The notes beneath the pieces were generated by a model. It saw nothing but the letters and a program-made list of their open reading frames with translations, was not told the DNA's origin and did not search any database. A stretch of 64,000 bases of DNA from the NCBI GenBank assembly GCA_017458625.1, contig JAFTAH010000072.1:6828-70827 (forward strand). Reading direction: 5' to 3'. A program made the translations under genes and the position numbers. Of this stretch, positions 781 to 64,000 are shown in pieces; position 1 is the first letter of the stretch; each line of letters starts with the position of its first letter. The stretch is from Kiritimatiellia bacterium. Lineage in GTDB: Bacteria; Verrucomicrobiota; Kiritimatiellia; CAIQIC01; Lenti-01.

Positions 781-900
781 GCCCCTCCCCCATCAAGCCC
801 GAAAACACACCCATCCCGCCCTACAAGTTTTGCCCCCGGCCGTCCCGTCGGCCGCCCTGCCCCACTCCCTTCCCACTTTTCACTTGCCCCCACGCGCCGC

Positions 901-1353
901 CTACCACCCGTCCGGCTGAAAGGCGTTCTCAATGTGCCGAATCGTCGGTGCCTCCCGCCCGTCCATCCGTCCCACCACCTCCACCACGTCGAACCGCCGC
1001 AACCCCGCCCCCCGCCGCACCCGCTTCAGATACCGCCACGCCGCTTTCGCCATCGTCTTGCGCTTCACGGCGTCCACGCGGCTCAAGGGGCGCCCGAAGC
1101 GCTCGTTTTCCGAGGTTTTGACCTCGACAAACACCAGCGTGTCCGGCTTCGGCTGCCGCGCCACCAAATCCAGCTCAAGCCGTCCGCCGTAGCGCACGTT
1201 GCGCGCCAGGATTTTCCACCCCTTGCGGCGCAAAAACGCGGCCGCCTCCAGCTCGCCCCAGCGTCCGAGCACCTGGTTCGGGGTGCCGCCCCCGGCCGCG
1301 GCGACCGCCCTCCGCCACGCCCGGCCCCACCGCTCCAGCCAGCCCGCGACCAC
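901..1353 (-). CDS. yraN: YraN-family (UPF0102) predicted endonuclease
   Basis: GRWGELEAAAFLRRKGWKILARNVRYGGRLELDLVARQPKPDTLVFVEVKTS is the YraN/Holliday-junction-resolvase-like core. The start at 1353 is GTG; the exact start is uncertain. Confidence 0.75.
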   Translation of the reverse strand: MVAGWLERWGRAWRRAVAAAGGGTPNQVLGRWGELEAAAFLRRKGWKILARNVRYGGRLELDLVARQPKPDTLVFVEVKTSENERFGRPLSRVDAVKRKTMAKAAWRYLKRVRRGAGLRRFDVVEVVGRMDGREAPTIRHIENAFQPDGW

Positions 1354-1356
1354 CGG

Positions 1357-1803
1357 TCAATCCAGCGGAATCGGGCACGCCCGGATGCCCCAAATCTCCT
1401 CTGCGTACTCCCGGATCGTCCGGTCCGTGCTGAATTTTCCGCTGTTGGCGATGTTCATCAGGCACTTCCGGGCCCACTCTTCCTTGTCCAGGAAGGCCGC
1501 CGAGACCCGCGCCTGCCCCTCCACGTAGGCGGCGAAGTCGGACAGCACCAGATAGCGGTCGCCATGCGTCAGCAGCGTGTCGACGATGGGCTGGTAGAGC
1601 CCCGGCTGGTCGAGGTTGAAGAAATTGTCGCGGATGGCGTCGAGCACGCGCCGCAAATCCGCGTTCGCCCGGTACTCGTCCCACGGGTTGTACCCCGCCC
1701 GCACCGTCGCCGCCACTTCCTCCACGGTCTTGCCGAACAGGAAGAAGTTCTCCGCCCCGACCTCTTCCCGGATTTCCACGTTTTCCCCGTCCCGCGATGC
1801 CCC
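1357..1803 (-). pseudogene. glgP: C-terminal ~148-aa remnant of glycogen/alpha-glucan phosphorylase (glgP), with its 5' ~80% missing
   Basis: DGENVEIREEVGAENFFLFGKTVEEV...DRYLVLSDFAAYVEGQARVSAAFLDKEEWARKCLMNIANSGKFSTDRTIREYAEEIWGI matches the extreme C-terminus of GT35 phosphorylases. Homology stops near 1803, where the tandem repeat array begins. A full-length GlgP is ~800 aa. Confidence 0.75.
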
Positions 1804-1860
1804 GACCCCCGCCCCTGCCGCACGCGGCGCCCACCCCCCGACAAGCCGGGCCGGCCGCGG

Positions 1861-2012
1861 GTTTTCCACACTGTGGAAAACCGCCGCGAAACACGTTTCC
1901 ATTGTGTGGAAAACATGCCGAAACATGCTTCCATTGTCTGGAAACTTTTCCGAAACATGTTTCCATTGTGTGGAAAACCCCACGCAACCTCTTTCCATCT
2001 GTAGGAAAACCG
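1861..2012. repeat. tandem array (~4.5 units, 27-32 bp period) of the palindromic unit GAAACATGTTTCCATTGTGTGGAAAAC
   Basis: Units at 1861-1881, 1888-1914, 1920-1945, 1952-1978 and 1994-2012. Each contains the inverted repeats GAAACATGTTTC and TTCCA-N5-TGGAA (GTTTTCCACA/TGTGGAAAAC is a perfect palindrome). Spacers are short and non-unique, so it is not CRISPR. All six frames give similar peptides, so the ORFs here are repeat artefacts. Confidence 0.85.
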
Positions 2013-2046
2013 TGGAACCCCTCCCCTTTGCCCCACTGGGACCATC

Positions 2047-2649
2047 CTATTGGCCCTTGAGCGCTTTCAGCACCTTTTCACGGTACTTTTCTTTGCCCAT
2101 ATTGCGAGCCGCATAATGAGGAATCTTGATGATTGGATACTTCCCGTCCTTGCCAAGATATTTCCGAAGGATGTCGTATGCATTGTCGCCCATGGCAACA
2201 AGCACGGGATGTTTTCCCAGAAACGACAGTTCTTCTTCAAATCTGCGTATGTTCCTTTTTGCTTTTTCGGGATGCTCCCTCAAGTGTTTCATCACCTCAC
2301 GAGAATTGCCTTCCACATGCTCTTTGATGACGTCGGTGAGGTACGATCCCCAGTATGGTGTATCCTGCAAGGCGAATCTCAACTTGAAATCTTTCTGGCG
2401 GCTATAGTCGCTGTGGAAATTCTTCCAGTCTTCCTTGAACCCTCCCTTCTGATTCCCCCGAGTGTTGGAGACATTCAAGCCGACAAACACAAACTTGGCC
2501 TTGAGAATGCGAAGAAGCCCGGCTTCATTGACCCAATCCATGGAGCCCGTATTCGAACTTGGTGTTCCGCCAGCTCGTTCCCATACCGCCCAACTGCCGA
2601 ATTTGCCATACTTCTCTTTCATGACGGCGTATGTGTCTTCCGTTATCAT
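2047..2649 (-). CDS. hypothetical protein (200 aa) in a low-GC (~45%) island; weak UDG-superfamily (MUG/TDG-like) pattern
   Basis: ATG at 2649, Lys/Glu-rich, clearly lower GC than flanks, AT-rich upstream region 2650-2750. FVFVGLNVSN ... VLVAMGDNAYDILRKY ... IKIPHYAARN loosely resembles the MUG motifs (VGINPG ... ILGKQAY ... LPNPSGL); the assignment is speculative. Confidence 0.55.
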   Translation of the reverse strand: MITEDTYAVMKEKYGKFGSWAVWERAGGTPSSNTGSMDWVNEAGLLRILKAKFVFVGLNVSNTRGNQKGGFKEDWKNFHSDYSRQKDFKLRFALQDTPYWGSYLTDVIKEHVEGNSREVMKHLREHPEKAKRNIRRFEEELSFLGKHPVLVAMGDNAYDILRKYLGKDGKYPIIKIPHYAARNMGKEKYREKVLKALKGQ

Positions 2650-2751
2650 AATATGCTCTCCGTTGTTCGTAATCTTGTGTCTATTTCAATTCGTTGTGGT
2701 TGTTGTGGTTGTTTTCATGAACTCGAAGCAGGTCCGGTTTCTTGTTGTTTT

Positions 2752-4053
2752 TCATTCCGACAGGACCCTGGCGGGGCGGAAGCCCAGGCTGCGGTCGCGG
2801 ACGGACGGGTGGCCGTCGCCGCGGTACGCCGACCGGCAGTAGTCCGCAAAGTGGCCCCAACACCCGCCCCGGTACACGCGGCCCGACCCGGACGAAGCCC
2901 CCTTCGGATCCGTCACCGAGCCGTCCGGATAATCCCCATACCAGTCCGCGCACCACTCCCACACGTTCCCGTGCATGTCGTAAAGCCCCCACGCATTCGG
3001 CTGTTTTTGCCCCACCGGATGCGTCCTGTTCCCGCTGTTGCCGTCATACCACCCCATGTCGTCCAGATTCCCCGTCCCCGCATACTCCCCCGTGCTCCCC
3101 GCACGGCACGCATACTCCCACTGCGCCTCCGTTGGCAACTGCAAGCCCGTTTTCTCGCAAAACTCCTGGCAATCGTCCCAACTCACATTTTCCACCGGCA
3201 GGTCGTCCCCCTCGAAAACTGACGGATTGTTCCCCATCACGCTCTTCCACTGCGCCTGCGTCACCTCCGACTTCGCCATCCAGAACCCCTTCGTCAACGT
3301 CACTTCGTGGACGGGCCGCTCGTCGCTGTCGCCATCGTTGCTCCCCATCATGAACGTTCCCGCCGGGCACCACGCCATCTCCATCTGCACTCCCCCCGGC
3401 AACGTGATGGTCTTCGTCTCTCCGGGTTTCTTTCCAGCTTGCATTGCCACAATTTCGGCTTTCGCTTTGGCTGCGGCCTCGGCTTCGGCTTTTGCCTTGG
3501 CTTCTGCGGCCGCCTTTTCGTCTGCGATTTGTTTTTTGACTTTCTCCAACAAGCTGCCACTCACTTCGACATAGCGTGCGACCCTTTTTTCGGCGCCCAT
3601 GGCGGTTTCGTACTCCATCGAACCACGACGGATATAGTACCCTTCGTCCAAAAACTCGCCATCCTCGTAACGCCTGGTCGTCTCCACCCAGATCACGCGG
3701 TCGCGAGAACCGAATGCGTATTCCACCAAATTGCCTTTCTTCGTGGCTTGCATCACTCTAACAAAATGACCGTTGTTGAAATATACTTCCCCTTCGTCTT
3801 TTGGAAAGCCATCGAACACGCTGAGGAAATCCTTCCCCGTGTATGTCCAGTCGCCGCCCCCTCCGCCGCCCCCCTCCCCGTCACCGACAAACGCCCCGAT
3901 GATTCCCAGAATCACCAGCACGCCCACGATGCAAATCGCCTTGCCTTTGGTGCCGCTCTTCCAGAGTCCGGCAATCTTCGCCCAGATGCCGGCCGTCTTT
4001 TTCTTGGCCTCGCCCGCAAGCTCCGCCGCTTTTTCTTTCGTTTCGTTGTCCAT
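2752..4053 (-). CDS. membrane-anchored formylglycine-generating-enzyme (FGE/SUMF1) domain protein with N-terminal TM helix, poly-Gly linker and Ala/Lys/Glu coiled linker
   Basis: C-terminal domain MEMAWCPAGTFMMGS...RPVHEVTLTKGFWMAKSEVTQAQW...GLYDMHGNVWEWCADWY...RVYRGGCW is a canonical FGE-sulfatase fold. ATG at 4053 with AGGAG 7 nt upstream (the track's 4083 start is TTG). TM segment ICIVGVLVILGIIGAFV. Confidence 0.85.
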   Translation of the reverse strand: MDNETKEKAAELAGEAKKKTAGIWAKIAGLWKSGTKGKAICIVGVLVILGIIGAFVGDGEGGGGGGGDWTYTGKDFLSVFDGFPKDEGEVYFNNGHFVRVMQATKKGNLVEYAFGSRDRVIWVETTRRYEDGEFLDEGYYIRRGSMEYETAMGAEKRVARYVEVSGSLLEKVKKQIADEKAAAEAKAKAEAEAAAKAKAEIVAMQAGKKPGETKTITLPGGVQMEMAWCPAGTFMMGSNDGDSDERPVHEVTLTKGFWMAKSEVTQAQWKSVMGNNPSVFEGDDLPVENVSWDDCQEFCEKTGLQLPTEAQWEYACRAGSTGEYAGTGNLDDMGWYDGNSGNRTHPVGQKQPNAWGLYDMHGNVWEWCADWYGDYPDGSVTDPKGASSGSGRVYRGGCWGHFADYCRSAYRGDGHPSVRDRSLGFRPARVLSE

Positions 4054-4182
4054 GTTTTGACTCCTGTGTTCTCGATTTTCCAAGTTCGTGATGGAAACCC
4101 GTATTGTGTTTTATCTCTTCTGGAGTGGGGCAATGAATTTTCGCTTTGCAGATGTCGGTTTTCCCGTCCTCCATTATCCTTT

Positions 4183-4300
4183 TGGCCGGACACCGTGTCC
4201 GTTCCGCCCTTCACTCAAATACTCGCCCGCCACCCTCAAAATCTTTCACCACCTGTCAAAAAAATTTGTCATGCTGGCAAAAAACGTGTGGACCATGCGA
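4183..4300 (+). repeat. copy 1 of conserved ~90-120 bp intergenic element (CACTCAAATACTCGCCC-N8-CAAAATCTTTCAC-N8-GACAAAAAA ... CGTGTGGACC)
   Basis: Near-identical blocks at 5412-5500 and 10765-10890. Confidence 0.6.
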
Positions 4301-4642
4301 AATGCCCCTGTCCCCCTGCCCGCGTTGAGCGCCCTTCCCCGGCCTGGCACGGCGGAACGGCATGCGAAATGCCAGAGTTTCCTGTTTGTTTCTTCGGAAA
4401 TCTTTCGGAAGTCATGCAATGAATTCTTCTGTAAAGTGGATGGAACTGCCGAATCCAAAACCCGGCTGCCATGACAATACTAACGGGGACAACCTACCGC
4501 GGCAAGACATTCAGGTTGCCACCGTGGCAAACTCCCGCCCTTTTGAAATCCCCTCTCTTCCCCATCCCAATCTCCTTTGTCCCCTCTGTGTTCTTTGTGG
4601 CTTTCCCTCCCCTCTCCGCGCCTCCGCGTCTCCGCGTGAGCT

Positions 4643-5026
4643 TCAATCAGAATCCACCAGAACAGGCGAGAAAAACTCTGCGACCGGCGCCTCCAAAAGC
4701 GCGGCGATGCCTGCGAGAAGCGGCGGCGTGGGGAAGCGCTGTCCGGCCTCCCACCGACTCCAGGTGCTGGCGGAAACGCCGAGTTCGAGAGCCGCGCCAT
4801 AGCGCTTGAGCCCCCGCGCCTCCCGGATGCGGCGCAAGTTGGCGGCAAATGTGCGGCGCATGGCGGCGTAGGCCGCCTCGCGGAGTTCCGGCGTCAGGGG
4901 CTTGACCGGTACTTGGCGCCGTCGCGGCGGCGTTCTCTTTTTCACGCCGTGCCTCCGGGATGCAGCCGTGGCGGGACGGCCCCCGCCGCCGCTCCGCCCG
5001 TCTGGCCTCTCTCTCCTGGTTCGCAT
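4643..5026 (-). CDS. XRE-family helix-turn-helix transcriptional regulator
   Basis: AANLRRIREARGLKRYGAALELGVSASTWSRWEAGQRFPTPPLLAGIAALLEAP is an HTH_XRE domain. The start is ambiguous: ATG at 5026, GTG at 4945 or ATG at 4861. The basic stretch GVKKRTPPRRRQ uses AAG/AAA codons, which favours it being coding. Confidence 0.7.
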   Translation of the reverse strand: MRTRRERPDGRSGGGGRPATAASRRHGVKKRTPPRRRQVPVKPLTPELREAAYAAMRRTFAANLRRIREARGLKRYGAALELGVSASTWSRWEAGQRFPTPPLLAGIAALLEAPVAEFFSPVLVDSD

Positions 5027-5411
5027 CCGGTTTCCTTCCGACCCGCCGTCCGCAAACGCCCCGACGCGGAAACCTGAGCGACAAAAAAAGCACGCCCACT
5101 GCTTCCATCCCCCGGGAGGCCGTAGGAAGTGCCTGGTGGAAAGACGGGAAAGCGGGGCGCGCGCACGTGCGCGCGTTCCCGAAGCGTCATTCCACCGTGA
5201 AATTTCCTACGTTTCCCGGAGCAACATCTTCGCGATTGCGAAACTCGGCTGTCTTCGCCGCGCGGCCCCGGAAGGGGCCCGGAGCCGTGCGGACGACCCG
5301 TTTGTACCCTGTCCCAATGGCCCCGTAAAGCAAAAACAGGCGGCGAAACGCCCCGCTTTCCCAAAATCTTTCCCCCGTTTCCGTCCATGGAGTTGCATCC
5401 TTTCCGTTCGC

Positions 5412-5500
5412 GGCCGGACACCGCGTCCGCTCCGCCTTCACTCCAATACTCGCCCCGCTCCCCGGAAATCTTTCACTTCCTCCCGACAAAAAACGCGCCC
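5412..5500 (+). repeat. copy 2 of the conserved intergenic element (CACTCCAATACTCGCCCC-N8-GGAAATCTTTCAC)
   Basis: Alignment with 4183-4300 and 10765-10890, including the shared GGCCGGACACCG(T/C)GTCCG(T/C)TCCGCC(C)TTCACTC head. Confidence 0.6.
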
Positions 5501-5779
5501 GGTTCCGCCAGACGCTCCCGCACCGCTCCGACCCGCAGTCTTGCCGTTCTCTTTTCTCCCCCCCGCGCGTCTCTGCGTTGAAAAACCTCACACCACCGAC
5601 AACGCATCCACGTTCACCCCCGCCCCCACCCCCTTCACTCCCGCCGCCCGCCTCATCGCCTCCCCCAGCACCCTCGACGCCTCCCTCCCCGCGCCCTCCC
5701 TTCGCGCCACCCTGCTTGGAGCGTCATCGTTGTTCCTTGCGCCCCCAAAAGTTCCACGCCATGGAAGTCGAATTCGGCC

Positions 5780-5876
5780 CCGCGCGCCCTGCCACGGCTA
5801 GGCCAGCATTCCCCACGCCGCCAGCAACCCCGCCAGGCGTTTGGCCCAACAACTTCTCCAACCCCGTCTTGCACAA
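5780..5876 (-). pseudogene. degenerate orphan copy of the N-terminal signal module (MKTRLHFHCARRGWRSCWAKRLAGLLAAWGMLA*) directly after family copy 1
   Basis: Reverse complement of 5780-5876 translates to a 33-aa peptide nearly identical at its start to the 79-aa module at 8832-9071 (MKTELHFHCPRRGWRNWAKHLAWLLPLW...). DNA at 5850-5960 is ~identical to 9046-9130. Confidence 0.4.
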
Positions 5877-5899
5877 TGGAAATGGAGTCGTGTTTTCAT

Positions 5900-6964
5900 C
5901 TACGGGAAGAGAAACGCCTTTTCGTAACGGAAAACATCAAGGTTTTTGAACAGGTTTTCGCTGAATTCGATGTTGCGGTCGTTGGGCACGGGATTGAAAT
6001 AATAGGAAAAATCGCCGAATCCGCCTTCCGTTCCGGGATGGGCTTCAACCTTGAAGTCCCTGTATATTTTCCCATAGTGGGCGGACACGACGTTGCCCTT
6101 TTCGTCCAATTGTGTCCGGACGCGCAAATAGAAACACCTGTCTTGGTTGGGCATCCACCCCCGCTCTTCCGCCTCGTCGTCCGACGGACAGGCGTAATAC
6201 CCCTTCCTCGTCAACCGGGGTTCGTACCCCGACTCCGGCGCCGTCCGCAAAAAGTGCCGGAACGTGTCCTCGGGCAGCAACACGGGAATGACGCCGTTCC
6301 CTTCGCCGGGAAACTCCACGTCCATCTGGAACACAACCATTTCGACGGTTTCATATCCCAGATAGGAAGAGACTTTTCTTTCGCCTCTCGATTCGCGGTG
6401 AATCGTCAACTCCATGTCGGGAATTGTTCCCTTCCCGTAAGGGGAAATCCAATCTCCAGCCTCCAAGTCATAGCCACAGGGACAATCCATTTCGGGGATG
6501 CGGCACCCCTCAAGATGCTTGGCGAACATCGGGACAGGCGTTCCCTTTTTGTTCAGCCGCAACTCCAAGGTTGGATTCCACGGCTGGAACCATGGAGGCG
6601 TTCCCCCCACGACGTTCGTGAAAACGAGGTCCCGCTCGAAACGGTAATACCCGTCGGGCTTGGATTCGACGATGACTTTGCCGCCATCCGCCATCGCCGA
6701 CATGGAACAAAAACCGTCTTTGTCCGTGCGTGCTTTTTTTTGCACGGGAGCGCCAAAACCCCAGCCTTGCCCCCTCTTCAGGGTCGTTCCGAAAAACGCA
6801 TCCACTTCCACCCCTTCCAACGCCGCCCCCGTGTCGAAATCCGTCACCCGGACCGTCACTTTCTGCAAGCTTGGGGCTGCAATCAAATGGACCGCCCCTT
6901 TCCATAACATTGCCACCACCACCCACGCAGGCAGCAACCACAACAAATGTTTAGTCCATTTCAT
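5900..6964 (-). CDS. secreted/membrane-anchored hypothetical protein, family copy 1 (354 aa; N-terminal signal anchor + carboxypeptidase-regulatory-like beta-sandwich motif VTVRVTDFDTG..EGVEV)
   Basis: ATG at 6964; MKWTKHLLWLLPAWVVVAMLWKG signal. ~75% identical to the 9072-10130 product. First ~110 nt and last ~85 nt are identical to the paralog, suggesting gene conversion at the ends. Confidence 0.75.
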   Translation of the reverse strand: MKWTKHLLWLLPAWVVVAMLWKGAVHLIAAPSLQKVTVRVTDFDTGAALEGVEVDAFFGTTLKRGQGWGFGAPVQKKARTDKDGFCSMSAMADGGKVIVESKPDGYYRFERDLVFTNVVGGTPPWFQPWNPTLELRLNKKGTPVPMFAKHLEGCRIPEMDCPCGYDLEAGDWISPYGKGTIPDMELTIHRESRGERKVSSYLGYETVEMVVFQMDVEFPGEGNGVIPVLLPEDTFRHFLRTAPESGYEPRLTRKGYYACPSDDEAEERGWMPNQDRCFYLRVRTQLDEKGNVVSAHYGKIYRDFKVEAHPGTEGGFGDFSYYFNPVPNDRNIEFSENLFKNLDVFRYEKAFLFP

Positions 6965-7369
6965 TCAATGTTCCTTTCTGCACCACAAGATCGAAGATTG
7001 ACTTCGTCTGCCTCCATGGCAACGATTTGGCAGCGGAGGTTTCGCGACCGCCGAACAGGAATCATTGTGGATTCCATGCCATGCCTGCACGCGTTAATCC
7101 TTGCTGGTTCAGGCCCCATGTTTGGAATCCCGGAGACAACTCCGTGTTTGTAGGGGTGGCACGGGCTGGGCGGCGATTCCCGGGACGCACCGCCCGCACC
7201 CCTGCGCCGCCGCGCCCACCGCGGCCGACGCCGACAGCAGCCCAGCCAGTGGCAGGCCCGCCGCCAGGGTCTTTTCATCTTGTCCAGCCGGTTCCTGCCT
7301 TCGGGTCCCAGGTGCACGGGCACTCCTCATCCTCTTTGTTTTCCGCTTTCTTTCCGTTCATTTTCGTTG

Positions 7370-8080
7370 TTATCTCCTCTTTATCAATCCTGAGCGCGGA
7401 CACGGCTTGCGGCACAACAACCAAATGCCAATCCCGCATGAAAACGCCAGACATGTCCAAACAATCGGCATGTACGGCTTTTTCCCTCCAGTCTCGGAAA
7501 ATGCCGTCATGCAGGGAGGGATTGTTCCGGTTGTTCCCTCCGTTTCCGGGGAGTTGGCAGATTCTTCTTTGTCCACCGGCTCTGCCCCCTCATTGTATAT
7601 TTTCCGATTCCACTGCTCCACCTCCCGCACTGCAGTATCTTTCGCGTGACGTTGCAAGTACCCCTGCAAGGGACTCTCGAACGGCCATTGGCACCACCGG
7701 AAAACCCGGGGACTCACTTTCCCCTCATCCGTGAGACGCGCCACCTCGAGCAAAAACGTTCCGAACTCGTCTTCGTCCATGTACCAGCACGAACACAACA
7801 CAAGCGTTTTGGACATTTCGTCCGGCGCCAACTCGTCCAAATGGGCCAGAGCCAAACGCCAAGACTTCGACAATTCCCTTTGCAGAGCCCTGAATTCGGG
7901 TTCATGGGAATATCGAGGAAGGATGTCCACCAAATCGCCCGCTTCGTTCTTGCGGCGTTCTCTTGCATAGCGCTCGGCGTCTCCAATTCGTGCGCGGAGG
8001 CTTTCCAAGCCCCCCCCATACGCGCTGAATGCAAGCGTCACCCAAGCCATGGCCACCAACCATTTCGAACATCTTTTCAT
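7370..8080 (-). CDS. hypothetical protein with N-terminal signal peptide and C-terminal TM helix (236 aa); candidate immunity/partner protein of the upstream amidase-like gene
   Basis: MKRCSKWLVAMAWVTLAFSAYGG signal; C-terminal IVWTCLAFSCGIGIWLLC TM. Start codon overlaps the stop of 8077-8835 (ATGA coupling). Confidence 0.6.
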   Translation of the reverse strand: MKRCSKWLVAMAWVTLAFSAYGGGLESLRARIGDAERYARERRKNEAGDLVDILPRYSHEPEFRALQRELSKSWRLALAHLDELAPDEMSKTLVLCSCWYMDEDEFGTFLLEVARLTDEGKVSPRVFRWCQWPFESPLQGYLQRHAKDTAVREVEQWNRKIYNEGAEPVDKEESANSPETEGTTGTIPPCMTAFSETGGKKPYMPIVWTCLAFSCGIGIWLLCRKPCPRSGLIKRR

Positions 8081-8835
8081 GGTACATATTTCCTGAATCC
8101 GGAGGTTCCGTCCAAAAATTCGTAGTATCGTTTATTAACGGTTCCAGAGGTTCCCGCGCCGATTCCTTCTCCGTCATAATCGACGATTCCAACATGTCCT
8201 GGCCCGCTTGGATCCGGATGGGCCACGATAAATCCCGGTTGAGGATAGGCAGTGTTCTCCAACAGCCAGTGGTCAATCGTGTAAACAAAAGGAAGAATGG
8301 GGTCTGTGGAGGCTGTTCCCGCCCACTGGTTGGCCGTCGGAGGATAATTGTGCAAATAACCATTGATGGCAGGGACGACGGCCCCTGCTTGGACAGCCCG
8401 GTGGGCAACGAAAATGTTGCATTTATAGGCACCGGCTGGAAATTCGGAAAATCCATAATCGGCAGGAACAACGCCTGCCAATGGATAATTGGTACTACCC
8501 AGCCAAGTCCTCGCCAATGCCGAAAAATCCACTTGGAACTGCGTGTCCGCCACACCGACGGCATCGGGATCTCCTACACACCCCAATCCATTGGGCTCTT
8601 CATTGCCTTTCCGCGTGTAAAGCCGTTCAAGTGCCATTGTTGCCGTCACGTGGAGAACGGCTTTCACCCGGAAAATGCCACTCAAATTCATTGCATGGGT
8701 GTAGGTTGTCCCATGCGCATCCGTCCCAAAGGAGGTCCAGTTATCCCAAGTGCCATCCCTCTTCCGGCGTTGATACATCCACGTCGGCTCATCGCCAAGT
8801 GGAACATAGGTGCCGGGATAAATGCCCGTTTTCAT
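8077..8835 (-). CDS. papain-fold (CHAP/NlpC-P60-like) putative amidase/peptidase, no signal peptide (252 aa)
   Basis: Cys in AGAYKCNIFVAHRAVQAG and His in GFIVAHPDPSGPGHVGIVDYDG, in the order and spacing typical of CHAP/Tae-like Cys-His hydrolases. ATG at 8835 overlaps the TGA of the preceding module ORF (ATGA). Confidence 0.55.
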   Translation of the reverse strand: MKTGIYPGTYVPLGDEPTWMYQRRKRDGTWDNWTSFGTDAHGTTYTHAMNLSGIFRVKAVLHVTATMALERLYTRKGNEEPNGLGCVGDPDAVGVADTQFQVDFSALARTWLGSTNYPLAGVVPADYGFSEFPAGAYKCNIFVAHRAVQAGAVVPAINGYLHNYPPTANQWAGTASTDPILPFVYTIDHWLLENTAYPQPGFIVAHPDPSGPGHVGIVDYDGEGIGAGTSGTVNKRYYEFLDGTSGFRKYVP

Positions 8836-9071
8836 GGTGACTTCGCTCCCATTGAGAAAAACGCCTTGACTTCGACTCCTTTCAAGGGCTCGCCCGTGTC
8901 GAAGTCCGACACCCTAACCGTCACTTTTCTCATCCCTGCCGCCAGCGATACGCCCGCAGCGCCATGCCACGCCAACATTGCCACCACCCACAGCGGCAAC
9001 AACCATGCCAGATGTTTGGCCCAGTTTCGCCAACCCCGTCTTGGACAATGGAAATGGAGTTCCGTTTTCAT
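8832..9071 (-). CDS. 79-aa ORF encoding only the shared N-terminal signal + beta-sandwich module (MKTELHFHCPRRGWRNWAKHLAWLLPLWVVAMLAW...KVTVRVSDFDTGEPLKGVEV)
   Basis: Homologous to the N-termini of 5900-6964 and 9072-10130. Begins immediately after the stop of family copy 2 and is translationally coupled to the amidase-like ORF. Confidence 0.45.
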   Translation of the reverse strand: MKTELHFHCPRRGWRNWAKHLAWLLPLWVVAMLAWHGAAGVSLAAGMRKVTVRVSDFDTGEPLKGVEVKAFFSMGAKSP

Positions 9072-10130
9072 CTACGGGAAGAGAAACGCCTTTTCGTAAC
9101 GGAAAACATCAAGGTTTTTGAACAGGTTTTCGCCGAACTCGACGTTCCGGTCGTTGGGTTCCGGGTTGAAATAGTAGCTGAAATCGCCGAACACTCCTTG
9201 CATGCCGGGATGGGGACTGACTTCGAAATCGCCGTAAATCTTGCCGTAGTGGGCCGACACGACATTGCCCTTTTCGTCCAACTGCGTCCGGACGCGCAAA
9301 TAGAAACACCTGTCCTTGTTGGGTATCCACCCCCGCTCTTCCGCATCGTCGTCCGACGGACAGGCGTAATATCCCTTCCTCGTCAAACGGGGTTCGTACC
9401 CCGACTCCGGCGCCGTCCGCAAAAAATGGCGGAACGTGTCCTCGGGGAGAAGAACGGGAATGACGCCGTTTCCCGCACCGGGGAACTCCACGTCCATCTG
9501 GAAAACGACCCCTTCGTAGGGACGGGGTTCAAGCCATCCCCCGTATGGTTTTTCTCCCTTCACCTCCTCGCGGCGGATGGCAAACAAAATGTCGGAGGTC
9601 TTTCCCTTTCCGAAGGGCGCCACCCAATCTCCCGCTTCCAAGTCATAGCCGCAGGGAACATCCGTTTTAGGTAGGCGGCAACACATGAGATGCTTCGCGA
9701 ACATCGGCACGGGAGTTCCTTTCCGGTTCAACCGCAACTCCAGCAGGGGATTCCAGGGCAAAAGCCGCGGGGGTGTTCCCCATGTCACGTTCGTGAACAC
9801 CAGTTTTCTTTCAAACCGATAATACCCTTCGGGTTTGGATTCGACGACCACGCTTCCCCCGTCCGCCATCGCCGATATGGAGCAAAGTCCCTCCTTGTCG
9901 GTGCTGGCGGTTTTCTCGACGGGCCCCTTTTTTCCAAATGCCTGTCCCCACATCGAGAAATGGACATTGACCCCAACGCCCTCCAACGGCTCCCCCGTCT
10001 CGAAATCCGACACCCGGACCGTCACTTTCTGCAAGCTTGGGGCTGCAATCAAATGGACCGCCCCTTTCCATAACATTGCCACCACCACCCACGCAGGCAG
10101 CAACCACAACAAATGTTTAGTCCATTTCAT
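9072..10130 (-). CDS. secreted/membrane-anchored hypothetical protein, family copy 2 (352 aa)
   Basis: ATG at 10130; paralog of 5900-6964 with identical N- and C-terminal ends. Its start overlaps the last 14 nt of gene X (10117-10529). Confidence 0.75.
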   Translation of the reverse strand: MKWTKHLLWLLPAWVVVAMLWKGAVHLIAAPSLQKVTVRVSDFETGEPLEGVGVNVHFSMWGQAFGKKGPVEKTASTDKEGLCSISAMADGGSVVVESKPEGYYRFERKLVFTNVTWGTPPRLLPWNPLLELRLNRKGTPVPMFAKHLMCCRLPKTDVPCGYDLEAGDWVAPFGKGKTSDILFAIRREEVKGEKPYGGWLEPRPYEGVVFQMDVEFPGAGNGVIPVLLPEDTFRHFLRTAPESGYEPRLTRKGYYACPSDDDAEERGWIPNKDRCFYLRVRTQLDEKGNVVSAHYGKIYGDFEVSPHPGMQGVFGDFSYYFNPEPNDRNVEFGENLFKNLDVFRYEKAFLFP

Positions 10131-10529
10131 TCGGTTCCGCCTTCGCGAAATCGGTCGTTCCCCGCCACAATTCCGCGCCGCTTCCGTCGCGCAACACCGT
10201 CGCCCCGCCCTCCCGCTCCGACGACACGGGCACCACCCACGTCGCCAAGTCGCGCGTCGCGGGGGCCGTATCCCATCGCGGCGAAAACTCCTCCCACGCC
10301 GCCGGCCATGTCCCCGCGTCCTGCACCAACTCCCCGTCCCCCGGCGTCATGCGCCGAAACTGGTTCCGCAAAATCTCCAGCCGCTCCGCGAAATCCTCCT
10401 CACCCAGCACCACCGCCTCGCCCGGCCCGTCCCCCGCCTCGTCGGCATCCCCAGCGGCAAACGACGGCGGAACACACAAAAATGCTGCAACACCAAGCCA
10501 ATCAACCAGCCCAATCTCTTCATGTGCAT
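10117..10529 (-). CDS. truncated and probably frameshifted paralog (gene X) of the partial gene at 63408->; secreted hypothetical protein
   Basis: In-frame segment VVLGEEDFAERLEILRNQFRRMTPGDGELVQDAGTWPAAWEEFSPRWDTAPATRDLATWVVPVS...TDFAKAEPNEMD* aligns with DIVVLGEVDLAERAEIWRNQYRRMTPGDGTFVQDVGAWPAAWEEFGSHWDAAPATRDLATWLVPVS...ATDFAKPESAN of the 63408 gene. The only ATG (10529, MHMKRLGWLIGLVL) is in the +1 frame; the homologous frame has no ATG near the signal-like segment, so this is a frameshift or non-canonical start. Confidence 0.4.
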
Positions 10530-10764
10530 CTTCCTGTGTACGCCGCTCTTCTCCACGCCCCATTCTCCCCTCTCCCCCCTCCCTCCCGCAAGCCCAAACT
10601 TCCCCTCCCCCCCATTTGTTCCCCTCCCTCCCCTCTGCGTCCCTGCCTCTGCGTTGAATGCCTCCCCCAATTCCCCCCGCCCCTCCCGCTACTCCCCCGC
10701 CTTGTCGGCGCACAGCCGCAAGCCCACCACGGACTTCCCCATCACGGCCCCGGCCCCGGCCCCG

Positions 10765-10890
10765 GCGCCGACGCCACTCCAATACTCGCCCCGTTTCCCG
10801 GAAATCTTTCACGTTCCGCGAAAAAATCATCCCCGTTTTTACAAAAGCGTTTCCCTTCCGTGCAATCCGTGTAGACCGTTTGCCCCTCGC
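10765..10890 (+). repeat. copy 3 of the conserved intergenic element (CACTCCAATACTCGCCCC-N7-GGAAATCTTTCAC ... CGTGCAATCCGTGTAGACCG)
   Basis: Alignment with copies at 4183-4300 and 5412-5500. The tail motif CGTGCAATCCGTGT also recurs at 16160-16185. Confidence 0.6.
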
Positions 10891-10918
10891 TCCGTGTCCG
10901 TGGACGGTCCGGCACCGT

Positions 10919-12070
10919 TCACATCCCGCCGCCCCACCGGAGCGTCTGCATCAGCGATTGCGTTTCTTCGTTTTCCCAGTAGGCGACAGCCGCTTCCAAC
11001 GCCTCTTGCAATTGCTTGCGGCGCTCTTCGTCTGCTGATGGAGCGTCCGCTTCCGACACTTCCGCCGTTTCCGGCGCTTCCCATGCCGTCGTCGTTTCCC
11101 GCAGGGCCGATGCTTCCGGGATTTCCGGTGCCGGAATCAGCCCTTGCGGGGCTTTCTCCCGCCCCCCGCTCCACAACCACGCCCCCAGCGCCACGGCCAG
11201 CGCGGCCGCCGCCACCGCCCACGCGGCGTTCCGCGCCCGGTGGCGGTGCCGGATTGCCCGCAGCAGCGGCTCCACGTCGGGATAGCGCTGCCGTGGCAGG
11301 GCCGCCGTCGCCCGCCGGATGATTTTCTCCCAGGCACGCGGCGGCTTGCCGCCGAAACACTCCTCCGCCAGCATTCCCAGCGCGTAGACGTCCGCCGCCG
11401 GCGTCGCCCCGGCGCCGGTGAACTGCTCCGGTGCCGAATGCCCGGGCGTCCCCACCCCCGCCTCGCGGCCGTCCACCACCGACGGCGACTCCCGTTCCGA
11501 CGCCGCCGTCTCGACCGCGTCGCCCGTCCCGACCGCCTTCAGCAGCCCGAAATCCGCCAGCACCGCGTGGCCGTCCGCCCGGCACAGGATGTTGCCGGGC
11601 TTGACGTCGCGGTGGAGCCACCCGCGCGCGTGCAACGCCGCCACCCCGGCGCCGACCTCCAGCAGGTATCGCGCCACGTCCGCGTCGGTCTCCGGCAATG
11701 GGCACTCGTCCAGCAGCTCCATCGCCATCCACGGCCGCCCCGACTCCTCCCCTGCCCCGTGGAAAGCGGGGAACGAAGGCATTCGGTTCTCCATCAAGAA
11801 CCGCGTCTCGCGCTCGAACCGCTCCCGCGGTCCCGCCCCGTCCCGCCACAGCACCTTCAGCGCCGCCCGCGTCCCCAGTCGCCGGTGTTTCGCGCAGTAC
11901 ACCTCCGCGTTCCCGCCCCGCGCCAGGAAGCCCGTCACCGTCCACTCGCCGACCTCCCGCCCATCCTCCCACACCCGCCCCGCCGCCTCCCCGCCGCCCA
12001 GGTCCGCCTCCCCCGACTCCGCCAGGTAGGCCGCCAGCAGCTCGTCGCTGTCATCGAATCCCGTCGACAT
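10919..12070 (-). CDS. Hanks-type Ser/Thr protein kinase with one C-terminal TM helix and a short extracytoplasmic tail; candidate ECF-sigma-associated kinase
   Basis: HRDVKPGNIL, DFG, SAPE and GK..ALKVL motifs. TM segment AAWAVAAAALAVALGAWLW. Overlaps the 3' end of the ECF sigma gene by 20 nt. Confidence 0.85.
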   Translation of the reverse strand: MSTGFDDSDELLAAYLAESGEADLGGGEAAGRVWEDGREVGEWTVTGFLARGGNAEVYCAKHRRLGTRAALKVLWRDGAGPRERFERETRFLMENRMPSFPAFHGAGEESGRPWMAMELLDECPLPETDADVARYLLEVGAGVAALHARGWLHRDVKPGNILCRADGHAVLADFGLLKAVGTGDAVETAASERESPSVVDGREAGVGTPGHSAPEQFTGAGATPAADVYALGMLAEECFGGKPPRAWEKIIRRATAALPRQRYPDVEPLLRAIRHRHRARNAAWAVAAAALAVALGAWLWSGGREKAPQGLIPAPEIPEASALRETTTAWEAPETAEVSEADAPSADEERRKQLQEALEAAVAYWENEETQSLMQTLRWGGGM

Positions 12071-12638
12071 CCTTCAAGCACTCCACGAGCTCTCGCAGCC
12101 GCGCCGTCATGCGGCTCTTCGTCAAATCCACCACCCTGCGCTCCACCCCCAGCGACTCCGCGACTGCCGCCGGCTTCTCCCCCCGCAGCGCCGTCCGCAC
12201 GAAAATCTGCTTGCTGCGGGCGCCTAGCCGCGAACTCCCCATCAACTGTCCAAGCGCCGCCGCGTAGACCGTCTTGCGCCACTCCTCCGCCCCGTCGTCC
12301 TCCGCGCCGCCCCCGTCCCGCACCGCCACTGCCTCGGCCTCGCTTCTGCGCCCCGCCCGCCGCAGCGCGTCCACGGCCTTGTGGCGCAGCACCCCCGTCA
12401 GGAAATTGTGGAACGCGCCCTTTTTGTCCTCGCGCTCGACGTACCCGGGCAGCGCCTTCATCACCCCGAGCAACGTCTCCTGGATCAAGTCGTCGGCCTC
12501 AAGCCCCGGGAACCGATCCCGCGCGTACGCCTCCAGCATCGGCCGGTACTTCGCGGCGAACTCCGCCCACCGCGGATGCTCCGCCGCCCCGGCAATCTGC
12601 TTCAACATGGTCGTGGATGTTCTCGGAATCCTGTCCAT
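12051..12638 (-). CDS. ECF (extracytoplasmic function) RNA polymerase sigma-70 factor (195 aa)
   Basis: Region 2 (ADDLIQETLLGVMKAL) and region 4 HTH (AVAESLGVERRVVDLTKSRMTARLREL). ATG at 12638 (MDRIPRTS...). The rest of the 645-aa track ORF upstream of this ATG is Arg/Gly noise overlapping gdh antisense. Confidence 0.85.
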   Translation of the reverse strand: MDRIPRTSTTMLKQIAGAAEHPRWAEFAAKYRPMLEAYARDRFPGLEADDLIQETLLGVMKALPGYVEREDKKGAFHNFLTGVLRHKAVDALRRAGRRSEAEAVAVRDGGGAEDDGAEEWRKTVYAAALGQLMGSSRLGARSKQIFVRTALRGEKPAAVAESLGVERRVVDLTKSRMTARLRELVECLKDVDGIR

Positions 12639-12929
12639 GGCTGCTCGTTCCCTTGCCACCCCCTTGGCTTCCATCACCTTTCCTCTTCCTCCCTCGCGCC
12701 TTCCTCCCGTTCCGCGTAAAACCACCAATCGTCCGCCTCGACGCCGGCGCACGTTTTCGCCCTGCAATGACATAACGGGATGGCAGGGTTCGTGTGTTTT
12801 GCGTGGTTGGAGCGGAGGACGGGCATCGGCACAAGGGGTAATCGGAAATTCTGTTGTCAGCCTAGCAGACGCAGAAAGCAAATGCAAGAACAAATGACCA
12901 TAAAAAACATGTGTTCGAGCCCATTGCCT

Positions 12930-12965
12930 AAAACTCCTCGCCCTAGCCAACTGCGGGCGAGGTCC
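12930..12965 (-). terminator. possible weak intrinsic terminator downstream of gdh (7-bp GC stem CTCGCCC/GGGCGAG followed by a 4-U run on the minus strand)
   Basis: Hairpin is visible by eye; the U-run is short. Confidence 0.25.
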
Positions 12966-12988
12966 GCGCCAGAAGCACGTCTGACGGG

Positions 12989-14296
12989 TTATGGATAGAT
13001 GCCGCGGAGGCGGGAGGCCTTGGCGACGCGGGAGACGGCGAGAATCTGGGCGGCCGTACGGAGGTCGCAACGCTCGCGGGCGGCGACGTCGCAGACGTCG
13101 TGGAAGCTCCGGAGCATGATGCGGTCGAGCGAGCGGTTGATCTCGGATTCGTCCCAGAAATTGGCCTGGAGGTCCTGGACCCATTCGAAATAGGAGACGG
13201 TGACGCCGCCGGCGTTGGCTAGGATGTCGGGGACAATGGTGACGTCCTTGCCCAGCAGAATCGCGTCGGCCTCCGGGGTGGTGGGGCCATTGGCGCCTTC
13301 GACGACAATCTTGGCGCGGACGGCCTCGGCATTGGCGGCGGTGAGCTGGTTTTCGAGGGCGCAGGGGACGAGGATGTCGGCATCGGAGGCCAGCAGGCGG
13401 GCGTTGGCGGCCACGGGGTCGGGGTCGTAGTCGGCCCCCTGGAAGCCTTGGAGCGTGCCGGCGCCGCCAGGGCCACGGACGTGTTCGTGGAGGGCGGCCA
13501 CGTCGATGCCGCGCGGATTGAAGAGTCCGCCGTAGGCATCGGTGACGGCCACGATCTTGACCCCCTTGGCGTGGAGGTGCCGGGCGGCGGCGGAACCGAC
13601 GTTGCCGAAGCCCTGGATGGCCGCCGTGGACTGCGCGGGATGCAATCCCAGGCGTTCGGCGGCGGCCAGGGTCACGGTGGCGACGGAGCGGCCAGTGGCA
13701 TCGAGACGCCCCAGCGACCCGCCAATCTCGACCGGCTTGCCGGTGACGACACCAGGCACCGAGTAGCCGACAGTCATGGAGTAGGTGTCCATCATCCATG
13801 CCATGACCTGGGGGTTGGTGTTGACGTCGGGTGCGGGAATGTCCTTGTTGGGACCGAGAATGATGGAGATTTCGGAGGTGTAGCGCCGCGTGACGCGCTC
13901 GATTTCGCCCATCGACATGCGGGTGGGATCGCAGACGACGCCGCCTTTCGCGCCCCCGTACGGCAGACCGACGACGGCGCATTTCCACGTCATGAGCATG
14001 GCCAGCGCCTTGACCTCGTCGAGGGTGACGCCCGGATGGTAGCGGACGCCGCCCTTCGTCGGCCCGCGCTCGGAGTTGTGCTGGACGCGGTAGCCCTCGA
14101 AGACCTCGACATGGCCGTCATCCATGCGGACCGGAATGGAGACGACGAGGGTGCGCTGGCATTGGCGCAAGCGGGCCAGCGTGCCGGGATCGAGCTGCAT
14201 GCGGGCAGCCACGGCGTCGAGCTGGCGACAGGCCATGTCCCAGAGCGAGAAGGGGCGGGAGACGGGAACAGCGGAAGGGGCATTCGTCGTGGTCAT
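12989..14296 (-). CDS. gdh: NAD(P)-dependent glutamate dehydrogenase (Glu/Leu/Phe/Val dehydrogenase family)
   Basis: GGVRYHPGVTLDEVKALAMLMTWKCAVVGLPYGGAKGG ... GFGNVGSAAARHL ... ANGPTTPEAD. ATG at 14296 (MTTTNAPSAV...). The upstream in-frame extension in the track is likely not translated. Confidence 0.9.
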   Translation of the reverse strand: MTTTNAPSAVPVSRPFSLWDMACRQLDAVAARMQLDPGTLARLRQCQRTLVVSIPVRMDDGHVEVFEGYRVQHNSERGPTKGGVRYHPGVTLDEVKALAMLMTWKCAVVGLPYGGAKGGVVCDPTRMSMGEIERVTRRYTSEISIILGPNKDIPAPDVNTNPQVMAWMMDTYSMTVGYSVPGVVTGKPVEIGGSLGRLDATGRSVATVTLAAAERLGLHPAQSTAAIQGFGNVGSAAARHLHAKGVKIVAVTDAYGGLFNPRGIDVAALHEHVRGPGGAGTLQGFQGADYDPDPVAANARLLASDADILVPCALENQLTAANAEAVRAKIVVEGANGPTTPEADAILLGKDVTIVPDILANAGGVTVSYFEWVQDLQANFWDESEINRSLDRIMLRSFHDVCDVAARERCDLRTAAQILAVSRVAKASRLRGIYP

Positions 14297-63060: not shown

Positions 63061-63407
63061 CTCCCTTTTTCGATTTTCCCCACTTTTTTCGTTTCGCGCG
63101 CCCTGGCGGCGCGGTTCACCGCCGCTCCCGCAACGGTTGTGGCGTCGGCAAAGAAGTCGTAACAGGTCGGATTGGCGGGTAGACTACGGGAAAGAGCCAT
63201 CTGGGCAAAAAAAGCGAAAAACGCCTTGTTTTACGTAAAATCACGACATTTCGGGAGTCGGAGAGAAGGCATTTTCCGCTGCCCTGAAGCGGCGACGGAA
63301 GGATCATGCGTCCACGATTCTTCCCCCCCCCGCTTTTTCGGTTGACAACACTTCTTCTTTCGTGAAAATCGGAACAGGCGGAGTCTCAAGGTCTGCCACC
63401 GACGGAA

Positions 63408-64000
63408 TGCCGCACGTGAAGAAACAAGTTTTACCGTTTTTGCCGCTGATTGCAACGATTGGCGGCGTTGTCGCCGCGTTGGCCGCGGGGAATCATCCGC
63501 CCGCCAGCGCCCCCGACGACATCGTGGTGCTGGGCGAGGTGGATTTGGCGGAGCGCGCGGAGATTTGGCGCAACCAATACCGCCGCATGACTCCCGGCGA
63601 TGGAACGTTCGTTCAGGATGTCGGCGCGTGGCCGGCGGCCTGGGAAGAGTTCGGCTCCCATTGGGACGCCGCCCCGGCCACGCGCGACTTGGCAACGTGG
63701 CTGGTTCCGGTGTCGGTGTCGCAGGAAAACGGTCTCACCGTCATTCGCGATGACGACGGGATGGTCCTCTGGAGCGGCGCGACGGACTTTGCCAAGCCGG
63801 AATCCGCCAACGTGACGCTGACCGGCGCTCTCGTGGACGAGCTCGAGTGGCCGTTGTACGACGCGGCACGCGATGAGATCGAGAGTCGGCTAGCCGCGAT
63901 GAGGATGGATGATGCCGGAGGCCTTCCCGGTCGGCACGGCCCCTACACGAACGGGCTGCGCTTCACGAACGCCTGGGAGGCGACGAACGGGGACTACCAC
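63408..64000 (+). CDS. 5' part of a secreted hypothetical protein (gene X') continuing beyond the window; full-length paralog of the truncated gene at 10117-10529
   Basis: ATG 63408 (MPHVKKQVLPFLPLIATIGGVVAALAAGN signal peptide). Open to the window end, so it is absent from the ORF track. 60-70% identical over ~120 aa to the 10117-10529 product. Possible TTGACA -35 at 63341. Confidence 0.65.

Follow-up and report, generated by a model that had tools for sequence, protein, structure and literature searches.

Polymorphic toxin systems, as surveyed by Zhang, Aravind and colleagues (Zhang et al. 2012, PMC3482391), combine a conserved N-terminal scaffold with interchangeable C-terminal enzymes, each encoded next to a downstream partner, and their loci also include orphan partner genes, tandem partner arrays and toxin cassettes truncated by recombination. 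NlpC/P60 and alpha/beta-hydrolase domains are both recognised as toxin modules in that survey, as are polyimmunity loci; its table lists the Tox-NLPC/P60 module from Bacteroidetes and delta-proteobacteria without an immunity family. The locus analysed here, and its relatives, are alike in all these aspects of organisation but differ in their scaffold (Sec signal, TSP3 and LTD domains) and in the GGEY junction that follows it, neither of which is among the named trafficking and pre-toxin modules found in that paper, and in having a partner (I) for the NlpC/P60 module.

Kiritimatiellota and Verrucomicrobiota are abundant in the rumen, gut, soil and water, and their interbacterial toxin systems have barely been charted; in the papers searched, nothing linked Kiritimatiellota to polymorphic toxins. 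Bacteriocins of the colicin M and pesticin type act in the periplasm of the target cell, and their immunity proteins are exported to the periplasm-facing side of the inner membrane or anchored there. Modules of the orphan cdiA-CT/cdiI and rhs-CT kind comprise the 5'-truncated 3' end of a toxin gene with an intact immunity gene, displaced behind other genes, whilst the acquired interbacterial defence islands of gut Bacteroidales keep immunity genes without the toxin.

The stretch of DNA analysed here (the window) comprises 64,000 nucleotides of contig JAFTAH010000072.1 from a Kiritimatiellia bacterium. The reading that we favour, with moderate confidence, is that it carries a decayed polymorphic-toxin-type locus of rumen Kiritimatiellae that has lost its toxins and kept its immunity-like genes, in other words an immunity-only island. 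This is the most likely explanation because both toxin genes have been destroyed whilst A2, I and A1 remain full-length. The annotation of the window is corrected to three intact exported proteins lying among five pseudogene fragments, as follows (L numbers denote loci used for comparison).

10117..10633, minus strand: gene X, what remains, as a pseudogene, of a giant gene for a secreted TSP3/LTD toxin
9072-10130, minus strand: A2, intact A-family gene (352 aa), identified by ORF analysis and paralogy
8854..9071, minus strand: A-gene stump, 74 codons from the 5' end of a second A-family gene, making up most of a 79-aa ORF (8832-9071)
8849..8853, minus strand: illegitimate recombination junction with AATGG microhomology, joining the truncated A gene out of frame to the truncated giant-H gene
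8077-8835, minus strand: H, the 252 codons that remain from the 3' end of a giant toxin gene, encoding part of an Ig-like domain and an NlpC/P60 cysteine peptidase domain, without an export signal
7370-8080, minus strand: I, intact gene (236 aa) encoding a signal peptide, then a helical domain and lastly a transmembrane anchor at the C-terminus; putative NlpC/P60 immunity protein
7109..7330, minus strand: remains of a small lipoprotein gene, frameshifted, in the spacer between I and A1, with 88.6% DNA identity to L016 (12402-12612)
5900-6964, minus strand: A1, intact A-family gene (354 aa); putative immunity protein
5780..5899, minus strand: pseudogene remnant of a small exported gene of the A'166 type; genes of the A' type follow A genes in relatives
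5594..5779, minus strand: cassette-terminating repeat, recognised by DNA comparison with relatives
63377..64000, plus strand: 5' part of a further giant-gene paralog that is cut off by the edge of the window

A first-pass annotation of the window had listed A2, the 79-aa ORF, H, I and A1 as minus-strand ORFs, and all are present at the coordinates it gave; the orphan remnants that it reported are present too. It had also related gene X (10117-10563 in this comparison) to a gene at 63408; that gene begins near 63377 and its product shares 71% identity with gene X and 52.6% with residues 2-203 of the giants (tblastn), so the kinship is borne out. In the I-A1 spacer, the signal peptide of the lipoprotein remnant (KTLAAGLPLAGLL.ASAAVGAAAQGC) is broken across two reading frames.

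Intact versions of the locus are found in the same species and in relatives. There, giant proteins of 1387 and 1461 aa, and others of at least 770-1068 aa, carry a signal peptide with bacterial TSP3 repeats and a lamin-tail domain (LTD); only remnants of such large secreted proteins survive in the window. Their N-termini are 63-68% identical over ~650 aa and give way, after the sequence GGEY, to three unrelated C-termini. One is a ~600 aa module (CT600) with a Ser-His alpha/beta hydrolase (lipase-like), followed by at least one A-family protein; another combines an Ig domain with an NlpC/P60 peptidase and is followed by one to three I-family proteins; the third (~240 aa) is followed by a 258-aa signal-peptide protein across an ATGA overlap. 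Overlaps between the C-terminal module and the partner gene are often 4-14 nt. A single TSP3/LTD scaffold bearing three alternative C-termini, each with its own exported partner, follows the logic of polymorphic toxins, and orphan cassettes and polyimmunity loci are likewise present; gene order marks the downstream partners as putatively cognate.

CT600 has the nucleophile elbow (G/A-H-S-x-G) and catalytic histidine expected of alpha/beta-hydrolase (lipase-like) toxins: the H-S-x-G motif and the histidine of WxHSD are invariant (H358, S359, G361 and H612 in 20 sequences). Matches to Pfam models were obtained for Abhydrolase_6 (7/20), DUF900 (5/20) and DUF676 (2/20), together with a weak match to the pancreatic-lipase elbow (E 0.06). 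In 54 of the 70 informative loci the CT600 coding region immediately precedes A on the same strand; ORF analysis shows that the two commonly overlap by 4 nt. H has the papain-like NlpC/P60 fold, with Cys139 at the N-terminus of a helix (139-149) and His214 opening a strand (214-218), both residues being invariant in 18 sequences; it scores 19.8 bits against Pfam CHAP (PF05257), below the gathering cut-off of 26, and is thus a member of the superfamily by fold that lies outside the curated CHAP family. The H family comprises 496 clusters and forms the very C-terminal end of proteins 280-2920 aa long whose N-termini carry TSP3, LTD, LamG, Big_1 or RCC1 domains. An I-family gene lies directly downstream of an H-type C-terminus in nine out of nine independent contexts (the window, L007, L009, L010, L016, L106, L107, L108 and L109), and I paralogs stand in tandem in L108 and in L109, the latter having three. 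The signal peptide and transmembrane segment of I can be read from its sequence and alignment, and I is a putative immunity protein for the NlpC/P60 domain.

A-family proteins consist of an export signal or anchor, a seven-stranded prealbumin-like sandwich (transthyretin/CarboxypepD_reg-like) and an all-beta domain; the AF2 model of A1 is all-beta (pLDDT 87.7). Neither the A nor the I family matches any Pfam or NCBIfam model. A-family loci occur in 80 species-level genomes from Verrucomicrobiota, Kiritimatiellota, Lentisphaerota and Desulfobacterota, and the C-terminal domain is the part conserved across phyla (~30% identity, many invariant residues). The locus in the window and an A gene of the intact type belong to one and the same MAG (locus tags IJT88_03830 and IJT88_08990), whilst the 64-kb window itself has no A-family copies beyond those described. 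Orphan A genes are seen in 16 loci and at least two tandem A genes in 16 loci, with an array of eight in the complete genome CP120722. As A is encoded directly downstream of a toxin-like hydrolase domain, it is likely to be the immunity component, and A2 is probably an immunity protein against CT600. The conservation of A is unusually high for an immunity protein and would fit an enzyme partner or a chaperone as well.

A1 and A2 are 77% identical at the protein level and lie within duplicated DNA (6966 to 5780 matching 10132 to 8945). The DNA is identical for 120 nt from the ATG and for 62 nt back from the stop codon (the first-pass annotation had put these stretches at ~110 and ~85 nt; the last 85 nt are 95% identical). 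Overall dN/dS is 0.21. In the identical first 120 nt dS is 0, as against roughly 1-2 for the interior, so that selection alone cannot explain the 5' stretch and gene conversion must be involved, as had been proposed: A1 and A2 are under purifying selection, with their ends exchanged by gene conversion. The 79-aa ORF and the stretch at 5780-5899 are truncated copies of the A-family 5' end (E 2e-20 and 1e-10). In A arrays the first ~50 residues are homogenised (88-98% identity) and the remainder has diverged to 48-58%. Such recombination of the 5' module may be how immunity repertoires diversify, and the separate movement of module and body offers a concrete handle on array evolution.

Both toxin genes of the window have been ruined. 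The hydrolase-type giant has been reduced to gene X, which keeps the 5' UTR, about 141 5' codons and the last ~5 codons of the giant gene. It matches the 5' end of the L013/L014 gene for the 1387-aa giant at 93.8% DNA identity (84-90% protein identity over residues 1-142), has a 1-nt deletion that shifts the frame within the signal-peptide codons and has lost ~3.7 kb, with the deletion junction at a GAAGG microhomology. A2 overlaps gene X by 14 nt, just as A genes overlap the intact giants of L013, L016 and L022. The NlpC/P60-type giant, a protein of at least 770-1068 aa in relatives, survives as the 252 codons of H attached to the A stump. The stump and the 5' end of the L013 A gene are 94.7% identical in DNA (the stump has 85-87% protein identity to A349/A351), and a three-way DNA alignment, read together with the reading frames, places the join at the 5-nt AATGG microhomology, with only six codons of giant-gene sequence upstream of the H ATG. 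H therefore cannot recombine back into a full-length toxin gene, there being no stretch of homology to do so. Translation of H would begin inside the Ig-like domain with no export signal. The frame is open, the catalytic residues are kept and ATGA overlaps link the 79-aa ORF to H and H to I, and there may be some expression of H from this locus. Nevertheless, H in the window is most likely a non-functional relic.

How, then, does the window compare with the other systems? The truncated toxin 3' end and the retained immunity genes recall the cdiA-CT/cdiI and rhs-CT orphans and the Bacteroidales islands, but H is joined to an unrelated gene stump, lacks a pre-toxin stretch and has no recombinase nearby. 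Colicin M and pesticin offer a likeness in the exported, periplasm-side immunity protein, with no kinship in sequence or domains. The T6SS Tae/Tai and Tle/Tli pairs differ from the loci described here, which show neither T6SS linkage nor carrier domains: among the genes tabulated for the loci examined, none belongs to a T6SS, T5SS or Rhs family, no T6SS carriers or components (VgrG, Hcp, PAAR, MIX etc.) were found with Pfam within ±5-10 kb of the loci or in the giants scanned, and the giants carry only a Sec signal.

From gene order and domain architecture we infer toxin and immunity roles as follows. The C-terminal enzymes would attack the envelope of competitors, the hydrolase acting on membrane lipid and the NlpC/P60 peptidase on peptidoglycan; some NlpC/P60 toxins are described in the abstracts of two reports as targeting lipids rather than peptidoglycan (PMC11996579, PMC12994826). 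A and I would sit at the periplasmic side of the inner membrane and there inhibit their cognate enzyme by binding it, whether it is being exported or arriving from kin. In this way the window locus would protect against toxins made by neighbouring strains as well as those from intact paralogous loci elsewhere in its own genome.

Other explanations merit consideration. A might be a folding, export or anchoring partner of the hydrolase domain rather than its inhibitor, on the model of Lif, the membrane-anchored lipase-specific foldase that Pseudomonas and Burkholderia encode downstream of their secreted lipases. The tight downstream position of A (often with a 4-nt overlap), its N-terminal, periplasm-facing anchor and a cross-phylum conservation about equal to that of CT600 would all fit, but a foldase would hardly be expected in 16 loci that have A and no hydrolase, in arrays of up to eight diverged paralogs, or intact and under purifying selection, like A1 and A2, after deletion of the hydrolase gene. 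Lif is alpha-helical. A is modelled as all-beta and matches no Pfam or NCBIfam model of Lif, and the H-I and third-module pairs obey the same downstream-partner logic. We regard a foldase role as quite unlikely. Another alternative, also unlikely in our view, is that the giants serve in feeding or in attachment to host or particle, as exoenzymes or adhesins that are secreted or surface-bound, rather than as antibacterial toxins, with A and I merely shielding the producer's envelope during export. Large adhesin-like scaffolds (TSP3, LamG, Big, RCC1 and LTD domains) and the lack of a specialised toxin secretion system near the loci examined are consistent with this, and lipases on large surface proteins can remodel the matrix, according to Zhang et al. 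(PMC3482391). The exchange of C-terminal modules, always at the GGEY junction of a single scaffold, the orphan partner genes and polyimmunity-like arrays, and the partners kept after loss of the enzyme argue otherwise: all are expected under interbacterial conflict, whereas self-protection alone does not need them.

The first-pass annotation had itself offered a model, in which a constant targeting module serves variable effectors, H owes its activity to translational coupling with the 79-aa ORF, and the matching immunity protein is I. Several of its elements hold. The system type is supported, an exported I-family partner follows H in every context, the predicted papain-fold Cys-His enzyme at 8077-8835 is indeed of the NlpC/P60 fold, I is the signal-peptide/C-terminal-transmembrane protein described and the pairing of the two is conserved; the ATGA overlaps, the intact catalytic residues of H and the near-constant first ~50 residues of A arrays could also be taken in its favour. 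The targeting module and the free-standing effector do not survive. The C-terminal domains of A are homologous and conserved across phyla, not variable in kind; the N-terminal module, considered unplaceable, is an export signal with a transthyretin/CarboxypepD_reg-like sandwich; the 79-aa ORF is 74 A codons joined out of frame at the microhomology; and H, which is the C-terminus of a giant protein in every relative, starts in the Ig-like domain without an export signal. This coupling arrangement is therefore highly improbable, and a decayed locus with retained immunity-like genes accounts better for the structure of the window.

Taken more broadly, the comparisons point to undescribed toxin and partner families, of predicted function, widespread in the Verrucomicrobia–Kiritimatiellota group. 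We would go further only tentatively, with rather less than even confidence, in proposing a PVC-wide undescribed antibacterial weapon: Sec-exported TSP3/LTD/LamG giants would swap envelope-degrading modules at GGEY, with at least three new module/immunity families, transthyretin-fold A arrays whose 5' module is homogenised or swapped apart from the body, and a delivery route new for diderm polymorphic toxins. If the assignment of roles holds, there are two testable pairs (hydrolase/A and NlpC/P60 peptidase/I) and a cultured strain with an eight-gene A array at hand (CP120722), and the present genome would have shed its toxins yet kept protection, with a bearing on strain coexistence in the rumen.

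At the end of the cassette, the remnant at 5780..5899 shows 50-61% identity by tblastn and differs from L013/L014 by a TTG to TAG nonsense change and a deletion of ~414 nt. Within the adjoining repeat, 139 nt (5641-5779) are identical to the sequence that follows an intact giant-A-A' locus. L014, an apparent strain variant, may be an assembly chimera formed through a 139-nt exact repeat, and strain-level toxin polymorphism at the exact site of the window is therefore not established. L013 has a further copy of the cassette-end repeat, at 3571-3703 (82% identity), situated upstream of its giant gene.

The cassette locus forms a patch of lower GC content (55-57%, against 64-70% for the window), and its minus-strand open reading frames (ORFs) are exactly those of the first-pass annotation:

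10117-10563, minus strand: gene X, an ORF that is a remnant of a giant gene
9072-10130, minus strand: A2, an ORF of 352 aa
8832-9071, minus strand: a 79-aa ORF
8077-8835, minus strand: H, an ORF of 252 aa
7370-8080, minus strand: I, an ORF of 236 aa
5900-6964, minus strand: A1, an ORF of 354 aa
5798-5899, minus strand: a short decayed ORF

Ruminant-gut metagenomes contain proteins identical to those of the window on at least 23 contigs, the carrier being named by NCBI as a Kiritimatiellae MAG. NCBIfam searches with five window proteins returned nothing useful, an Rfam search of window 3500-13000 gave zero matches, and promoter and terminator scanning of the locus gave a signal at background level that did not define operons.

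The locus is very probably a relic that has lost its putative toxins and kept its putative immunity genes, and alignment shows its decay. What survives as gene X is the 5' end of a giant gene (the giants being large secreted TSP3/LTD proteins) of the type ending in CT600, a C-terminus of about 600 aa, with which it aligns at 94% DNA identity; it carries a 1-nt deletion within the signal-peptide codons and a deletion of ~3.7 kb, with its junction at a GAAGG microhomology, that has brought codon ~141 up against the final five. The 79-aa ORF is what remains of a second A gene, its first 74 codons (94.7% identity to the corresponding gene of L013, a comparison locus). This stump runs, out of frame, into a giant-H gene through an AATGG microhomology at 8849-8853, leaving six codons of giant sequence upstream of the internal methionine that is the present ATG of H. 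That programmed frameshifting yields a fusion of the 79-aa ORF with H was considered and rejected as unlikely, the join being an accidental microhomology junction. Further on, the spacer between I and A1 contains a frameshifted remnant of a lipoprotein gene, and the ORF after A1 is what a nonsense change and the loss of 414 nt have left of A', a small exported gene that comes after A in relatives. All of the putative toxin genes of the locus are dead, and A2, I and A1 are intact.

H itself is a truncated NlpC/P60 putative toxin module. Its homologues are longer and it aligns to their C-terminal parts only, starting within the Ig-like domain that precedes the peptidase domain; in the window it is without an export signal and half of that Ig-like domain, and the protein is probably inert. 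A profile search of 1.84 billion representatives with the H module gave 496 clusters; in those tabulated the module ends no more than 30 residues from the C-terminus of proteins of 280-2920 aa, the N-terminal domains of which include TSP3 repeats, lamin-tail, LamG, Big_1 or RCC1. The nearest relatives (66-69% identity, in L016 and L109) form the C-terminal ends of giants that reach at least 770-1068 aa. An I-family gene lies directly downstream of an H-type C-terminus in nine independent contexts (the window, L007, L009, L010, L016 and L106-L109), frequently with a 4-nt overlap. These I relatives range from 18% to 90% pairwise identity with the window's I (profile E-values 1e-23 to 1e-104), and most consist of a signal peptide, a helical domain, a linker and a C-terminal TM anchor. 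Tandem I paralogs are present in L108 (two) and L109 (three), the second of the L109 paralogs being the one 90% identical to the window's I. The I-family profile had no meaningful match in the PDB. At L010 (5296-8624) an 855-aa TSP3/LamG protein is followed by a 207-aa H homologue that starts mid-domain, with an I-family gene next; the two ORFs look like a single toxin gene split by a frameshift or sequencing error.

The second type of module, CT600, is the C-terminal part of ORFs 600-2300 aa long, which commonly overlap A by 4 nt. It contains an alpha/beta hydrolase, with an invariant A/G-H-S-x-G elbow and an invariant histidine in a WxHSD motif; a subset of members is hit by Pfam Abhydrolase_6, DUF900 and DUF676, and the pancreatic-lipase elbow is matched weakly. 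Searching the PDB with a single CT600 sequence gave zero matches, and NCBIfam found nothing useful in 20 CT600 sequences. The N-terminal 780 aa of the giant are conserved in only two A-family loci. The closest relatives have a 14-nt overlap between the A gene and the end of a 1387-1461-aa giant (TSP3, LTD).

Scanning species-representative genomes for the A family identified 80 loci in Verrucomicrobiota, Kiritimatiellota, Lentisphaerota and Desulfobacterota. Where upstream sequence was sufficient (70 loci), 54 encode CT600 upstream of A on the same strand; A occurs without CT600 in 16 loci, and tandem A genes, at least two in a row, are present in 16. The predicted structure of A1 (pLDDT 87.7) has a hydrophobic helix at the N-terminus and an all-beta C-terminal domain without an informative structural neighbour; when the family profile was compared with the PDB, only the N-terminal sandwich was matched. 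For an immunity protein, the conservation of A is unusually high.

A1 and A2 are 77% identical, each copy of the DNA duplication spanning the whole gene and the start of the following one, and no further A-family copy was found in the window. At the DNA level they match exactly for 120 nt at the start and 62 nt at the end. Across the first 40 codons synonymous divergence is 0, compared with about 1-2 for the interior, and dN/dS overall is 0.21, from which it follows that selection maintains both genes and that gene conversion has recently homogenised their ends. This pattern is a trait of the A family. The complete genome of a cultured strain, Kiritimatiellota bacterium B12222 (CP120722), carries eight A genes in tandem (120-10587) in a locus from which a CT600 gene is absent. 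The first ~50 residues are 88-98% identical among paralogs with bodies only 48-58% identical, and in one pair the relationship is reversed (31% over the first 50 residues, 81% over the body); leader module and body thus recombine independently. With its shuffled leader modules in a cultured strain, this array would make a good experimental system.

The giants of L016 and those of L013 and L014 are 63-68% identical over ~650 aa, up to a GGEY motif, after which three types of C-terminus are found:

Type 1: CT600, then A genes
Type 2: Ig and NlpC/P60, then I
Type 3: a ~240-aa module (L102), then a 258-aa signal-peptide protein with an ATGA overlap

The third module and its partner span 4291-6269 of L102, the single useful locus from a metagenome scan with the giant N-terminus, where a frame change near 4290-4375 interrupts the giant ORF. 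Swapped C-termini on one scaffold are the defining architecture of polymorphic toxin systems, a feature that the giants share, and NlpC/P60 and alpha/beta-hydrolase modules are recognised toxin domains of such systems (PMC3482391). Lipids are reported to be the target of some NlpC/P60 toxins (PMC11996579, PMC12994826).

This architecture suggests, with moderate confidence, that the giants are Sec-exported polymorphic toxins and that A and I act as periplasm-facing immunity proteins. The first-pass annotation had proposed a constant N-terminal targeting module with variable effector domains, and H and I as a toxin/immunity-like pair; it recognised the right kind of system and gave its parts the wrong roles. 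A, I and CT600 are new families of a known kind, for which there is no Pfam or NCBIfam model. A literature search found nothing tying Kiritimatiellota to polymorphic toxins, and no delivery system was evident at the loci examined.

The giants might instead be exoenzymes for feeding or adhesion, with partners that serve only in self-protection, which we consider unlikely; that A is a Lif-like foldase or export partner seems more doubtful. Both proposals have to contend with orphan genes, the eight-gene arrays and tandem I paralogs, as well as with the swapping of modules at GGEY and the keeping of partners after toxin loss, all of which disfavour them. The same MAG has an intact-type A gene elsewhere (IJT88_08990; the window locus is IJT88_03830), and a third giant gene of TSP3/LTD type starts at window 63377-64000 (plus strand) and runs off the window edge, residues 2-203 of the 1387-aa giant matching its product at 53% identity. 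Under the preferred reading of the giants as toxins, the genome is thus not toxin-free overall.

An element of ~186 nt follows the A/A' genes both in the window (5594-5779) and in L013 (9586-9765), with 139 nt identical between the loci; in the intact locus it begins with a hairpin with a 10-bp stem, followed by TTTT. A second L013 copy (82% identity) lies upstream of the giant gene (3571-3703), so that the giant-A-A' cassette is bracketed by a direct repeat. The element may serve as a substrate for recombination, and assemblers are easily misled by it. L014 (ERZ28018668 k141_1069452) has an intact giant-A-A' cassette joined to the right flank of the window, at 99.98% identity over 5.8 kb; L013 runs on into other genes, and the repeat is where L002, which comes from the same sample, stops. 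Since the 139-nt exact repeat common to L013, L014 and the window lies at the join, and L002 ends there, the reading of L014 as a strain variant with an intact toxin at the window site was withdrawn; it may reflect a recombinant subpopulation that really exists or a chimera made during metagenome assembly through that repeat.

A sigma-70 region-2 (ECF-like) gene (~12051-12700, minus strand) and, directly after it, a gene for a Ser/Thr protein kinase (10919-12070, minus strand; Pkinase E 7e-23) are found just upstream of the decayed locus. The pair is absent beside the intact loci of relatives and is therefore probably unrelated to the toxin locus. The spacers bordering the cassette (4900-5800 and 10140-10900) are C-rich on the plus strand (GC skew -0.2 to -0.3), which gives long proline-rich low-complexity ORFs. 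A 277-aa plus-strand gene at ~4968-5801 annotated in public assemblies, itself low-complexity, proline-rich and antisense to a G-rich spacer, is probably spurious. Lastly, a ~63-nt motif without an Rfam match occurs three times in the window (4187-4249, 5414-5476 and 10750-10812; 63-81% identity), its core reading GTGAAAGATTTCCGGG..CGGGGCGAGTATTGGAGTG on the minus strand. Each copy lies upstream of one minus-strand gene (an FGE-sulfatase gene, an HTH gene and gene X respectively), and the motif could act as a promoter or leader or represent a small repeat element.
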